A DNA stretch of 50,459 bases, taken from positions 72,987,542-73,038,000 of the forward strand of contig JBNRSN020000026.1 in assembly GCA_051313645.2 (NCBI GenBank), read 5' to 3'. Source of the stretch: Centroscyllium fabricii (lineage: Eukaryota). The notes beneath the pieces were generated by a model. It had not been told where the DNA came from. It saw nothing but the letters and a program-made list of their open reading frames with translations, and made no database searches. The position numbers were made by a program, and so were the translations under genes. Shown piece by piece: positions 8,283 through 25,417 of this stretch (its first letter is position 1; each line of letters starts with the position of its first letter).

Positions 8283-8318
8283 AGTCGACGTTTCGGGTTA
8301 GGACCCTTTGTCAAGACT
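8283..8318 (-). ncRNA. Minimal hammerhead motif, U3-A8 core variant (family B)
   Basis: Minus strand AGTC-TTGACAA-A-GGGT CCTA ACCC-GAAA-CGTC-GACT: stem I AGTC/GACT, stem II GGGT/ACCC, palindromic ACGU stem III, GUC site. Confidence 0.7.
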
Positions 8319-8563
8319 GAAGCCAGGAAATGAAACAGGTGGGAAGGCCGGGGGAGCTGGGAGAGAGCAACAGGGAAGAGAAAACCAAAGAGAGTAATGA
8401 AGATGAACAAGGTTGAAGAGCCAAGCGGAGATCTGGTCCAAGGGAGGAGCAGAACTTCTTCAAGGTGGGCATTCCTGGAAGAGGTGTGGCCGTGAACCAG
8501 ACACTTGCAGGGTAGCAAAATACTGCAGACGCTGGAAATCCGAAATATCATCAGAAGTGATCT

Positions 8564-8598
8564 GTTTTGAAGAAAGGTCATCGACCTGAAACGTTAAC
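8564..8598 (+). ncRNA. Degenerate hammerhead motif (family B2 variant)
   Basis: GTT-TTGAAGA-A-AGGTC ATC GACCT-GAAA-CGTT-AAC: U3.G8 wobble core, 5-bp stem II, GUU site. Confidence 0.5.
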
Positions 8599-9042
8599 TC
8601 TGTTTTTCTCTCTCCACCGATGCTGCCTGGCCTGCTGAGTTTCTCCAGCGTTTCCTGTTATTTCAGATTTCCGGCACCTGCAATATCTTGCGATGGTAGA
8701 AGTGATCTGTCTACGCGGGCTGGGTTGATGTGCCCACAAGGACTTCAGGACCCAATGACGGGGGGCGGGGGGGGGGGGGGGGTGGTACTAGATCAGTTTA
8801 TGTGAATTTGCAGGGAATTGTTGGCAGGTTGGATAAGGTTAATATCTGACCAGTTTGTTGCAATTGAACAGTTTTCAGTTCAGGGAAGTGCTACGCTCGA
8901 ATTGTCTACATTTCTTCATTACAAACCTACATAAGGGAAAATTCTCTGCACATCGTTTCTCTAAAGAGGGAAAATCCAGACACGGATCAGTGGTGGACCT
9001 TGCTGTCTGTTTTTTATTACTTCCTGTGATTTCTGCGAGAAT

Positions 9043-9345
9043 GATATCGCACAGAAGGAGGCCATTCGCCCCTTCATGCCTGAAAGAAAGAGCTGTCCAA
9101 TTAGGCCCACTCCCTGTTCTTTCCCTACAGTCCTCCATTTGTTCTCCCCTTTTTAAACATATATCCATTTCCTTTTTGAAAGATACTATTGAAGCTGTTT
9201 CCACCGCCCTTTCAGGCAATGCAATCCAGATCACAACAACTCGCTGGGTCAAGAAAAAATCTCATCATCATCTCCTCCTGGCTTTTTTGTCAATTATCTT
9301 CAATCGGTGTCCTCTGGTTTCGACCCTCCAGCCAATGGAAACAGT
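9043..9345 (-). mobile_element. Old CR1 LINE 3' fragment
   Basis: The ORF 8875-9252(-) begins TQRVVVIWIALPERAVETASIVSFKKEMD, resembling the CR1 ORF2 C-terminus, followed by a CR1-like 3'UTR hairpin. Confidence 0.75.
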
Positions 9346-9978
9346 TTCTGTAATAGAGTAAAAATGTCACAGTTAAAGGGAAATCGACATCTCGGGGCTA
9401 ATACCATTTTATGGGGTTTATCAAACGCGATCCTTTCCTTCAACCCTGTTTGAAATGTAGATTAAACTGAAAACCATTGTAACTAATCGCTCTTCCAGTT
9501 CAAGGAAAGATTATCCGTCTCGTGCCTTGAAGCAGGAAATCGCCTGAAAACGTTGGAATATTTTTTTCCGGGCGTGCTTAAAGTGATATTTTTGTGTGCA
9601 AGGATTCGAAAACAACATCTTCAGGAAATGTTCGCAGTGTTCATTTATTGTGTTGTGAGTACGTTTTCAAAATCATTTCATTTTGCTGATAGAGTAGTTT
9701 GACCGTCACAATCCGAAGACTGACTGTGCTGTGTGTCTGTGCTCTCTCGGTCTATAATCACCCAGTTTCCATAGAACCCGACAAATGTCCAGTTACATGG
9801 TGGACACTGTGCGCTTTCGGGGAGATAGTCGGAGCCCCTTTCCCGCGTTAATAAAGGCCGATTTATTGTTGTTGCCTTTTTACGACTCAATCTAAAAAGC
9901 CAGGCGTAAGTTGTCTTGGATAGTGCGTGAGCGGGGGCTACCATCAGGGATCGGGCAATGTTCAAGATTTTGGTTAGA

Positions 9979-10140
9979 AGGAAAGAACTTGCATTTCTAT
10001 AGCGCCTTTCACTTCTTCAGGACGCCCCAAAGCACTTTTTGAAGTGTAGTCACTGTTGTAATGTAGGAAACGAGGCAGCCAAATTGAGCACAGCAAGCTC
10101 CCAAAAAACAGCAATGTAATAATGACCAAATCATCTGTGG
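9979..10140 (-). mobile_element. Deu-domain SINE 3' fragment
   Basis: aaagaacttgcatttctatagcgcctttc...cagcaagctccc is homologous to 5928-6100. Confidence 0.75.
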
Positions 10141-10579
10141 TAGAAACGGTACCTTTGCATTGGTTTAGGAATTAGCCGTGAAGATAAATCTGGTTATCTG
10201 TAGGGGTAGAGGCAGCGGCAACGGCAAGGATAGTTTGGTTGCTGGGCCTGGGGACAAGATGCCATCATAAACTAGTTAGGCTGGAGTTCATTGCGGGGAC
10301 ATCCTGGTTGGGTTGGAATGAGAGTTTGTCCGCGCTCCAACCCGATTGAGTTGAGCTGGTGGTTTACCAACGAGGAGAGTCTGGTCGTGTTGGAGCAGGG
10401 AGAATATCCTGGTTGGGATTGTGTTGTCGCAGAAATAGCTTGGTTGGGTCCGGTTTGGAGGTGGGCTCAAAGCCTGATTGGTTGAGAGCTTATATGAGCT
10501 AGCACCATGTTTGGATTGGATTCTGTCTTTCGCCAGTCCGACAATACACCAGGCCATTATTATATGACATCGCATTAAC

Positions 10580-10748
10580 AGCACAGAATCAGGCCATTCG
10601 GCCCAACAGGTCCATACTGGTTTTTATGCTCCTCGCGAGCCTCCTTCCACCTGACCTCATTTCAACCCATCAGCATAACCCTCGATTCCTCTCTCCCTCA
10701 TGTGTTTATCCAGCTTCCCTTAAATGCCTCTATGCTATTCACCTCAAC
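10580..10748 (-). mobile_element. CR1-like 3' fragment
   Basis: acagcacagaatcaggccattcggcccaacaggtcc...ccttaaatgcctctatgctattcacctcaac, a typical CR1 3' end in reverse. Confidence 0.55.
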
Positions 10749-23093: not shown

Positions 23094-23094
23094 T

Positions 23095-23533
23095 GTGTCG
23101 ATTGGGCTTATACTCACTGGAGTTTAGAAGATTGAGAGGGGATTTCATCAAAACCTATAAAATTCTGTCAGGCCTGGACAGACTAGATGCAGGAAGGATG
23201 TTCCCGATGGTGGGGGAGTCCAGAACCAGGGGTCACAGTCTAAGGATAAGGGGTAAGCCATTTAGGACAGAGATGAGGAATTTCTTCACCCAGAGAGTGG
23301 TGAACCTGTGGAATTCTCTGCCACAGAGGGCGGTGGAGGTCAATTCATTAAATATATTCAAGAAGGAGTTGGATATATTCCTTAAGGCTAAAGGGATCAA
23401 TGGATATGGGGAGAGGGCAGGGGCGGGGTACTGAGTTTGGATGATTAGCCATGATCTCATTGAATGGCGGAGCGGGCTCGAGGGGCCGAATGGCCGACTC
23501 CTGCTCCTATCTTCTATGTTTCTATGTTTCTAT
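23095..23533 (+). mobile_element. CR1 (HER1-like) LINE 3' fragment, ORF2 C-terminus remnant
   Basis: RLGLYSLEFRRLRGDFIKTYKIL...SRTRGHSLRIRGKPFRTEMRNFFTQRVVNLWNSLP, followed by a (tttctatg)n tail. Confidence 0.93.
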
Positions 23534-24323
23534 ATAAATGAACATTTCTTTCAATCCTATTGCATATATTATTAATGGTAATTGCTTTGTCCGTGTTACT
23601 TTTGTCAGCCTTCCAATTCAAAATATTATATTCTCCATATAACTTCATTTTGTCTGGAGGGAATAATGCTGATTCTATACTCGAGGGCGTTTATACTCAT
23701 GGGGATCAGTAAAGACAGACAAAAAAAACACTGACATGTGTTACTGTTGCAAAATGCTGACGTTTAATCTTCGTACTTTCTCAGCATTTCCAAAATAAGA
23801 GTTTTCTTGTTCCAAATGGAAAAGTGCAAACTTGCAGAAACCGTGGGTTGAGGTTTCCGGGCTGCATGAGTTGTGTCTGTCTGTGCATGGGGGAGGGGAT
23901 GGAACAGCTGAATATTCGCTCTGGCCCGCCTGTCTCTGCATCGCGGTGTCTGTTATTATGTCGAAAAGGCTGGCTTGGGATCTCACCTACATCCATCAAG
24001 CTCGATTTATCAGTTAACTCTGAAACCGGGAAGAGATTTTGTTGTTGTTGTAGCCTTTCTGACTTTGGGTATTTTTGATTAATTGTGACGTCATTAGCGC
24101 AGCAGTCAAAAACACGCATTTAAAGATTGGGGCTCTCTGTCACAACTTGTTCAACAACGCCCATTGGCCATTTACTTACGGCATCATCTGCGTAGCAGCA
24201 TGAAAGGACCAATTCTGCAACTGCCTAGTAACATAAGTTGTGTGTTTAAAGTATGGCACGGACCAGCAGCCACAGTTAACGCACTTTCACTATTCCAACA
24301 TCATTGAATCCGATATTATTGTC

Positions 24324-24424
24324 ATGATGTGGAGGTGCCGGTGTTGGACTGGGGTGGACAAATGCAAGAAGTCACACAACACCAGGTTATAGACCTATAT
24401 AGGACTATAACCTGGTGTGTGACG
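24324..24424 (-). mobile_element. Short PLE family A fold-back insertion with TSD
   Basis: Tail, then caccaggttatag...ctataacctggtg inverted arms. TSD gatattattgtc at 24312-24323 and 24428-24439. Confidence 0.85.
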
Positions 24425-24541
24425 TCTGATATTATTGTCGACCGCGACTCATCTGAGTTTTTTTTGTGTTTAATGCAATGCTAATAAGAAACAGTTTTGG
24501 TGTAGGTACCGGACAGAAGTTAAAGTGAAGTTTCTCTGGAA

Positions 24542-25148
24542 GTCATAGAGTCATAGAGTTATACAGCACAGAAAGAGGCCCTTCGGCCCATCGTGTCCGC
24601 GCAGGCCATCAAGCCCCGTCTATTCTAATCCCATTTTCCAGCACTTGGTCCGTGGCCTTGTATGTTATGGTGTTTCACGTGCTCATCTAAATGCCTCTTA
24701 AATGTTGTGAGGGTTCCTGCCTCTACCATCCTTCCAGGCAGTGAGTTCCAAATTCCAACCACCCTCTGGGTGAAAAAGTTCTTCCTCAAATCCCCTCTAA
24801 ACCTCTCGCCCCTTACCTTGAAACTATGCCCCCTTGTTATTGACCCCTCTACCAAGGGAAAAAGTTCCTTTCTATTTACCCTATCTATGCCCCTCATAAT
24901 TTTGTACACCTCAATCAGGTCCCCCCTCAGCCTTCTCTGCTCCATGGAAAACAACCCCAGCCTGTCCAGTCTCTCTTCATAGCTGAAGCGCTCCAGCCCA
25001 GGTAACATCCTGGTGAATCTCCTCTGCACCCTCTCCAAAGCTATTACATCCGTCCTATAGTGCGGCGACCAGAACTGCACACAGTACTCCAGCTATGGCC
25101 TTACCAGCGTTTTGTACAGCTCCATCATAACCTCCCTGCTCTTATATC
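24542..25148 (-). mobile_element. CR1 LINE 3' fragment (second subfamily), ORF2 remnant
   Basis: ORF 24625-25080: QFWSPHYRTDVIALERVQRRFTRMLPGL...YEERLDRLGL...RRLRGDLIEVYK...FFTQRVVGIWNSLP, with a (ctctatga)n tail. Confidence 0.95.
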
Positions 25149-25218
25149 CTATTTGTTTCAAAATGGATGTCCCCACTCCCCCATCCCCACCATTCAGACA
25201 GACACATATACACAAGGA

Positions 25219-25417
25219 ATAACAACAGAACATTCTGGAAAAACTCAGCAGGTCAGGCAATATCCGTGGAGAGAAATATAGAGTCGACGTTTCGGGTTAG
25301 GATCCTTTGTCAAGAGTATATTTCTCTCTCCACCGATGTTGCCTGGCCTGCTGAGTTTTTCCAGTATTTTCTGTTGTTATTTCGGATTTCCAGCATCCGC
25401 AGTATTTTGCGATCGTG
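25219..25417 (+). mobile_element. PLE-like family B fold-back insertion with 14-bp TSD
   Basis: Inverted arms and a degenerate U3-A8 hammerhead (25282-25315, -) in the spacer. TSD catatacacaagga at 25205-25218 and 25418-25431. Confidence 0.85.

Follow-up and report, generated by a model that had tools for sequence, protein, structure and literature searches.

The 50,459-nt stretch of the Centroscyllium fabricii genome analysed here (the window) carries three hammerhead motifs whose core pair reads U3-A8 instead of C3-G8. This raises the question of whether the double change was present in the master copies of a mobile element or accumulated after insertion, and what might have kept it. All three are minimal hammerheads of type I, they sit in the 3′ pLTR of a Penelope-like retrotransposon, and their positions are those given in the initial annotation. 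The relevant features are:

8283..8318, minus strand: family-B minimal hammerhead with U3-A8 (U3 at 8314, A8 at 8309, predicted cut after C17 at 8287)
13441..13476, minus strand: family-B minimal hammerhead with U3-A8 (U3 at 13472, A8 at 13467, C17 at 13445)
25282..25315, minus strand: family-B U3-A8 core with damaged stem II and a stem I of 2 bp, by sequence and fold
34586..34620, minus strand: B2-type hammerhead with C3·A8 and a broken stem III palindrome (CAU), both changes at CpG sites
8190..8556, minus strand: internally deleted Penelope-like body (blastn to the copy L367, 88% identity in both parts)
8562..8699, plus strand: inverted pLTR arm of lineage C beside the 8283 body, with a U3·G8 hammerhead at 8564-8598 on the same strand
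8177..8710: 11-base target word present three times (8177-8187, 8555-8565, 8700-8710), framing arm and body
13345..13732, minus strand: 5′-truncated copy with the whole 3′ pLTR from ORF stop to tail
25219..25417: fold-back insertion, with arm 25317-25416 (plus) and body 25316-25219 (minus)

Read on the minus strand from 8318 to 8283, the motif consists of AGUC, UUGACAA, A, GGGU-CCUA-ACCC, GAAA, CGU, C and GACU. The motif at 13476-13441 is identical except for its loop, UCGA, and that at 25315-25282 has the same core. Stem I can thus be read as AGUC/GACU in the 8283 and 13441 copies, as previously described. The GGGU/ACCC stem II attributed to all three holds for these two; the 25282 copy has GGAU/ACCC, with one mismatch, and its stem I is short because the inverted arm replaces the 5′ side. 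Its double-hammerhead fold is calculated at +0.7 kcal/mol, and this hammerhead is probably inert. The core, N3-UGA-N-N8-A plus GAAA with a Watson-Crick 3-8 pair, is that of the minimal hammerhead. So is the lack of helix III, with a palindromic ACGU and an NUH site instead. The order is that of type I, with a stem I of 4 bp, a stem II of 4–5 bp (8283 and 13441) and an extra base between 9 and 10.1. Compensatory changes in the stems are present across subfamilies. Rfam covariance models gave 12 matches in the window at E≤1, none of them a hammerhead, so standard models miss U3-A8 motifs, as the initial annotation had anticipated. The occurrence of the motif is not due to chance: its C7 pattern has 2,436 exact matches in the 7.2-Gb genome, versus 0 for the reversed control.

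The three motifs belong to separate insertions, each with its own target duplication (13333-13344/13733-13744 for the 13345..13732 copy; 25205-25218/25418-25431 for the fold-back). In the 8190..8556 body, one part (8556-8390) comprises the pLTR tail and about 165 nt that follow the 5′ pLTR in a long copy, and is joined to a second part (8393-8190), the 3′ pLTR. The arm and body within 8177..8710 likely constitute one compound insertion. All of these insertions in the window are old and truncated, and most likely inert. A non-LTR retrozyme, built of tandem non-coding hammerhead monomers, is ruled out as their source, since the copies are dispersed, truncated or fold-back and derive from an ORF-bearing element; no tandem array of hammerhead monomers occurs in the window.

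The host element has thousands of copies in the genome. In U3-A8 copies the hammerhead lies in the pLTR, about 260–310 nt 3′ of the stop of the RT/GIY-YIG ORF. None of the 30 best long copies has an intact ORF, the longest being 845 aa (C3-G8) and 570 aa (U3-A8). The 570-aa piece, from lineage B, matches RVT_1 (E 2.5e-4) and GIY-YIG (E 5.3e-4), both under Pfam cut-offs; the 845-aa ORF gives no domain match at E≤0.001. Translation of the element ORF reveals YIDD and YIGE motifs. As expected of an EN+ Penelope-like element, a single ORF combines RT with a C-terminal GIY-YIG domain, and copies show pLTRs, inverted 5′ arms, an optional tail of 30–40 nt and target duplications. The ORF translations also contain a CX2-5CxxC linker and a CCHH endonuclease, features of the Neptune clade, of which the linker is also found in Nematis. 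In Neptune/Nematis-type EN+ elements (Craig et al. 2021, PMC8557442), too, the GIY-YIG domain is C-terminal and has two cysteines separating its motif halves, and the same linker, inverted 5′-truncated arms and tails are present, the likeness being one of motifs. PAc of Anolis carolinensis, a Poseidon element, also carries a pLTR hammerhead, and two sites of RT initiation give it an optional 30–40 nt tail, in agreement with the two 3′ ends observed among copies here. Unlike the present element, PAc has a C3-G8 core and an ORF that starts inside the ribozyme, and Poseidon lacks the Cys linker (PMC11167929).

Is U3-A8 a product of decay? Among exact genome matches with family-B stems, 2,910 are U3-A8, 16 C3-G8, 39 U3·G8 and 40 C3·A8. 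Both changes occur together in 97% of matches and each single state in 1.3%, so U3 and A8 do not vary independently, and U3-A8 is the master state, as the initial annotation had proposed. CpG decay at 7-8 combined with C-to-T at 3, each after insertion, might have seemed a natural origin, given that the subfamily adjoining B has a CpG at C7-G8 and that C3·A8 decay copies exist. The B-stem counts refute this idea, however, and a further lineage described below (C) has A7 and therefore no CpG, leaving it a negligible chance of being correct. Most of the 16 C3-G8 copies have a different upstream pLTR and constitute the adjoining subfamily. The basal B context (U3-A8, 1,815; C3-G8, 501; U3·G8, 45; C3·A8, 62) holds no amplified intermediate at the origin of lineage B. 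N7, loop II and H17 differ among several subfamilies in which U3-A8 is constant, and a U4C variant on a daughter of B reaches 1,929 matches.

A pattern-free profile survey of 1.05 Mb (81 profile hits) yielded 43 copies with a full core: 20 C3-G8, 18 U3-A8, 4 C3·A8 and 1 U3·G8 (Fisher p 2e-7). With about 18 of 43 cores being U3-A8, searches for CUGANGA undercount these motifs by roughly 40%. Positions 4, 5, 6, 9 and 12–15.1 retain the consensus in 40–43 of the 43 copies; in the flanks, 145 of 298 columns vary among 9 cluster majorities.

U3-A8 is also found in a second lineage, C, with 1,980 matches. About 88 of the 100 matches listed are U3-A8 (an estimated 1,740 or so overall), and the related states number 4,327 (C3-G8), 805 (U3·G8) and 64 (C3·A8). 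All 30 U3·G8 copies sampled have distinct flanks and are thus separate insertions; 11 of 30 U3-A8 copies sampled rode inside other repeats. The initial annotation regarded the single-change copies of the window as intermediates or decay products. The copy at 8564 (U3·G8) belongs to the amplified group of 805, while the C3·A8 copy near 34590, whose broken palindrome had been overlooked, fits decay: its C7-A8 stems from a CpG and a second CpG has also decayed, so that its state looks like CpG decay. A tree built without ribozyme columns requires two changes to U3-A8, both forced by starred branches, and a single U3-A8 clade is rejected (p-AU 2e-6). The ORF-only tree needs four changes and is weakly resolved (2 of 28 branches starred). 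Within lineage C, U3·G8 is interleaved with U3-A8 in a poorly resolved tree whose bootstrap is unsettled. Derived-allele scores there are ordered 0.3, 2.2 and 3.1 (10, 18 and 18 copies scored; U·G versus U-A, p=0.064). Lineage C shares A7 and stems with its C3-G8 neighbours and B carries C7 or U7, indicating that the C core was not copied from B.

This last observation bears on whether U3-A8 had a single origin and was passed to lineage C when co-packaged RNAs underwent template switching or gene conversion. Lineages B and C probably overlapped in time, since 10 of 48 typed divergent pairs mix them, including the 8283/8564 pair of the window. A transferred tract spanning 3 and 8 must also bring position 7, however, which largely excludes such an exchange, and lineage C contains its own abundant U3·G8 class; we regard transfer as highly improbable. 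Likely, then, the swap arose twice, once via an amplified U·G form. That repetition, with the spread of U·G, suggests selection on the 3-8 pair, cutting itself being a prediction from sequence. Among the 100 matches listed of 488 for G10.1 subfamilies with a 14-nt stem II, no third U3-A8 origin is evident; U3·G8 occurs there in 15 of 68 B-type rows.

In the reading we favour, and hold to be probable, the element carries a minimal hammerhead in its pLTR, U3-A8 is a master state that selection on the 3-8 pair has likely preserved, and cutting is predicted to require a dimer or assistance from an element protein. C3-G8 would be the ancestral core. Lineage C may have passed from C-G through U·G to U-A, with U·G and U-A masters then coexisting; lineage B would have left no amplified intermediate. 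The palindromic ACGU may let two RNAs pair as a double hammerhead in which one core cuts the partner RNA, such that an intact partner could rescue a weak core. A dimer can be drawn, yet two monomer folds (-19.0) are together more stable than the double hammerhead (-15.9). In the contexts counted, C3·A8 forms no amplified group. The stem pairs show a like bias toward wobbles over C·A mismatches: U·G outnumbers C·A at 2.1-1.1 (1,584 versus 328), and hand counts at 10.1-11.1 give G·U in 23 of the 100 matches listed of 10,185 and A·C in about 71 of the 100 listed of 345. By themselves, three wobble-first cases correspond to p=0.125. We put forward only tentatively the fuller account in which C-G became U-A twice in one family, U·G was a replication-competent stage with some 800 insertions, C·A never spread, U4C spread only on U3-A8, and weak cores were cut in trans in mixed double hammerheads.

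It is also conceivable, though unlikely, that the motif was kept as a folded RNA or as a splice or protein-binding signal rather than as a catalyst, the AT-biased U3 and A8 having hitchhiked on successful masters under relaxed catalytic constraint. Both C3U and G8A are GC-to-AT transitions, and U3·G8 and U4C both amplified. Indeed, in lineage C the output of U3·G8 masters came close to that of U3-A8 masters (805 versus about 1,740), and the two are interleaved on the tree, implying that strict pairing was not required. In the aligned subfamilies, stem I is preceded by a pyrimidine tract and YAG. Inspection by eye of two sets of 100 listed matches showed no accumulation of 5′ ends at the cut site, which fits relaxed catalysis; most of the listed junctions are intact copies with CpG decay, length variants or nested insertions, and genomic 5′ ends gave no evidence of cleavage. 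In the anole, whose PAc is the one reconstituted element (Frangieh et al. 2024, PMC11167929), the hammerhead is protein-assisted, read ends are absent from its cut site, and hammerhead mutants had no effect on insertion in vitro, where it is dispensable; the 3-8 pair nonetheless matters for cleavage. In one type III ribozyme, as far as the available text of PMC9901934 goes, a G-C swap alone rescued, other single and double mutants including U-A being low. Relaxed constraint fits poorly, however, with an identical double change arising twice, with unpaired catalytic positions staying fixed while half of the flank columns changed, and with the failure of C3·A8 to amplify, even though, owing to the 7-8 CpG, no mutation is commoner in C7 subfamilies (62 versus 501).

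A U3-A8 core in Penelope elements is already known; the traceable compensatory path is what is added here. In Schistosoma, Cervera and De la Peña (2014, PMC4209133) described about 1,300 U3-A8 motifs in Penelope elements. The pLTR of the Cercyon elements of S. mansoni, like that of the present one, carries a minimal hammerhead of type I with a U3-A8 core, an extra base between 9 and 10.1, a palindromic 15.2-16.2 and a stem I of 4–5 bp; in both cases the motifs number more than a thousand, are mostly single and escape the standard descriptor. Host and element differ, as does stem II (4–5 bp here, 7–8 there), and the available portion of that account describes neither a subfamily tree nor independent origins, and no wobble or U4C class. 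Natural 3-8 covariation including U3-A8 was reported by Perreault et al. (2011, PMC3088659), who, citing Przybilski and Hammann (2007), note that covaried ribozymes are active in vitro; those variants, in the part available, are scattered examples, whereas here a retroelement lineage retains countable intermediates. No second U3-A8 lineage was found in the literature searched, and wobble or U4C variants may have been reported earlier.

The genome thus provides a population record in which catalytic positions were kept while half of the flanks changed, one compensatory swap was repeated, and three pairs in the masters could be G·U but not C·A. It also holds a natural allelic series in matched stems: C-G, U·G, U-A, and U-A with U4C. 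Together, the conserved core, the repeated swap and the wobble bias lend indirect support to selection on the RNA fold in vivo.

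Three hammerhead ribozyme motifs of family B, a Penelope-like subfamily with U3 and A8 at core positions 3 and 8, lie in the window alongside other features:

8318–8283, minus strand: family-B hammerhead with a 4-bp AGUC/GACU stem I, UUGACAA core and GUC site
13476–13441, minus strand: family-B hammerhead with the same stem I (AGUC/GACU, 4 bp), core (UUGACAA) and GUC site
copy at 25282, minus strand: family-B hammerhead, stem II with a mismatch, stem I of 2 bp only
8177–8710: back-to-back mixed pair of a lineage-C arm (U3·G8, 8564) and a family-B body (U3-A8, 8283), framed by three copies of a single target word
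3887–3960, minus strand: tRNA match (68 bits, anticodon loop GUU)
41743–41955, 48506–48805, 49741–49957 and 29006–29122: hairpin-forming repeats of another family, their inverted arms near-perfect

All three motifs are present much as the initial annotation had described them. Those at 8283 and 13441 carry one extra A after the core, a stem II of 4–5 bp, GAAA and the palindrome ACGU; the motif at 25282 is present but departs from the description in stems I and II. Every one of the three is flanked by a target duplication of its own, in agreement with the view that they are separate insertions. No hammerhead appears among Rfam matches within the window, and the pattern with C7 gave 2,436 exact matches across the 7.2-Gb genome of the host, probably a shark, and zero when reversed. 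A pyrimidine tract plus YAG, resembling a 3′ splice site, precedes stem I in the aligned subfamilies (window 8319–8335, minus strand, and homologues).

Long copies have, upstream of the hammerhead, an ORF that combines a YIDD reverse-transcriptase motif with a Cys linker and a GIY-YIG endonuclease; the hammerhead occupies the 3′ terminal repeat (pLTR) about 260–310 nt past the ORF stop. This layout is that of EN+ Penelope-like elements, with motifs of the Neptune/Nematis type as outlined in PMC8557442; a 570-aa piece of the family-B ORF gave weak Pfam matches to RVT_1 and GIY-YIG, below curated cut-offs. Copies have two alternative end points ~30 nt apart, and frequently carry an inverted arm. 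They are old, as indicated by a median end branch of 0.047 in the pLTR-flank tree and by the lack of an intact ORF among the best 30 long copies. At 28702–28874 and 30571–30698 the window holds two further fold-back stubs of this element, neither with a complete core. An element ending in G- and C-runs is frequent within the ribozyme region (genomic loci L002, L061, L065, L166, L021), in B at the TATA that follows stem I, and within ACGUU in copies with the related B2-type stems, where it accounts for insertions in roughly a quarter of 100 matches listed; it looks like a site-preferring DNA transposon.

The shared C3U and G8A changes had been attributed to the master element rather than to decay, and the genome-wide count of 3/8 combinations bears this out. 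With stems fixed and N7 free, U3 and A8 occur together in 2,910 copies, versus 16 C3-G8, 39 U3·G8 and 40 C3·A8. Among the loci fetched from these sets (16/16, 20/39 and 20/40, respectively), the upstream pLTR differs in most C3-G8 copies, and single-change copies are mostly family-B-flanked and dispersed across the B clade, as judged by eye. A profile search over 1,050,459 bases, free of any fixed pattern, returned 81 matches, 43 with a full core (20 C3-G8, 18 U3-A8, 4 C3·A8, 1 U3·G8). In these 43, the consensus at positions 4, 5, 6, 9 and 12–15.1 is retained in 40–43 copies. Constraint on the core is read from this sample alone; the cluster set (9 clusters of at least 4 copies, 88 of 136 rows), in which the cluster majorities disagree at 145 of 298 flank columns, was gathered with a pattern fixing several core bases. 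Family B is probably common to relatives, since contigs from four runs, under four other organism labels, cover the 13441 core and list no alternative letter at ≥5% at U3 or A8 (a missing row in such contigs is weak evidence). B also has a daughter subfamily with core UCGAUAA (1,929 genome-wide matches), in which U4C sits on a U3-A8 background in 98 of 100 matches listed and flanks are distinct in 15/15 sampled loci; its stem II takes two forms, one shortened (L064, L069, L121–L135).

A second U3-A8 family, lineage C, has core UUGAAAA and B2-type stems (1,980 matches). Of 184 motif copies, the 81 whose upstream pLTR spans ≥150 nt went into a tree of pLTR flanks from which the ribozyme had been cut out. 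Leaving out 21 rows (12 C3·A8, 7 U3·G8, 1 U3·C8 and 1 C3-G8, the last being L149, placed inside B and removed after the first tree had been inspected) left 60, for which U3-A8 requires two changes, each forced by starred branches; a single U3-A8 clade is rejected (p-AU 2e-6). The tree has no inferred root, and C3-G8 ancestry is taken from the midpoint and the published consensus; two double changes are required whatever root is chosen. Lineage C retains the A7 of its C3-G8 neighbours, which argues against a core copied from B and excludes CpG decay in this lineage. A weak ORF tree (31 rows) needs four changes and joins C to C3-G8 rows at 96 and 99.

Lineage-C stems carry C3-G8 in 4,327 copies, U3·G8 in 805, C3·A8 in 64 and U3-A8 in ~1,740, the last extrapolated from 88 of 100 matches listed among the 1,980. 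U3·G8 thus makes up 13%, compared with single-change decay of 1–2.7% of paired copies elsewhere, and flanks were distinct in 30/30 sampled U3·G8 loci. The U3-A8 count is inflated by passive carriage: 11 of 30 sampled loci form three groups transported by other repeats (L093, L098, L102, L103, L108, L120; L097, L112; L113, L114, L118). U3·G8 copies are intermediate at four diagnostic sites, yet on a tree of poor resolution they interleave with U3-A8 copies, so masters of both kinds probably coexisted. For B's origin, basal-B counts (C3-G8 501, U3·G8 45, C3·A8 62, U3-A8 1,815) reveal no amplified intermediate; one B-derived context has 15 U3·G8 in 68 B-type rows among matches listed (hand count). 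Stem pairs show the same wobble bias as the 3-8 pair: at 2.1-1.1 U·G outnumbers C·A by 1,584 to 328, and at 10.1-11.1 G·U ~23% among listed matches of 10,185 vs ~245 A·C (hand counts, in two contexts that are not identical).

Under a published model (PMC4209133), two RNAs would join through the palindromic ACGU and each core would cleave its partner after GUC. Since both bases of the 3-8 pair belong to one RNA, an intact partner might still cleave an RNA whose own core is weak. Divergent pairs of mixed lineage account for 10 of 48 typed pairs; some may be separate insertions, and the 8177–8710 arrangement suggests one insertion built from two different RNAs. Natural U3-A8 covariation, which Perreault 2011 (PMC3088659) reports with a citation for in vitro activity, favours catalysis. 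Against it, the double-hammerhead dimer is not the lowest-energy fold, no 5′-end spike is seen at the cut site among matches listed, the anole ribozyme is protein-assisted and insertion proceeds without it (PMC11167929), and one type III hammerhead was rescued by a G-C swap only (PMC9901934). 5′ ends are modestly enriched 4–18 nt upstream of position 3, with a hazard of 0.08–0.10 per 5 nt versus 0.03–0.04 further upstream, in pattern-selected copies.

Penelope hammerheads with U3-A8 have been on record since 2014, with ~1,300 Schistosoma matches (PMC4209133). Literature on U3-A8 and wobble hammerheads, with key papers incompletely covered, yielded no repeated origins or amplified wobble class. 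The feature is real and its earlier reading correct; its significance lies in the evolutionary record rather than in the U3-A8 variant as such.
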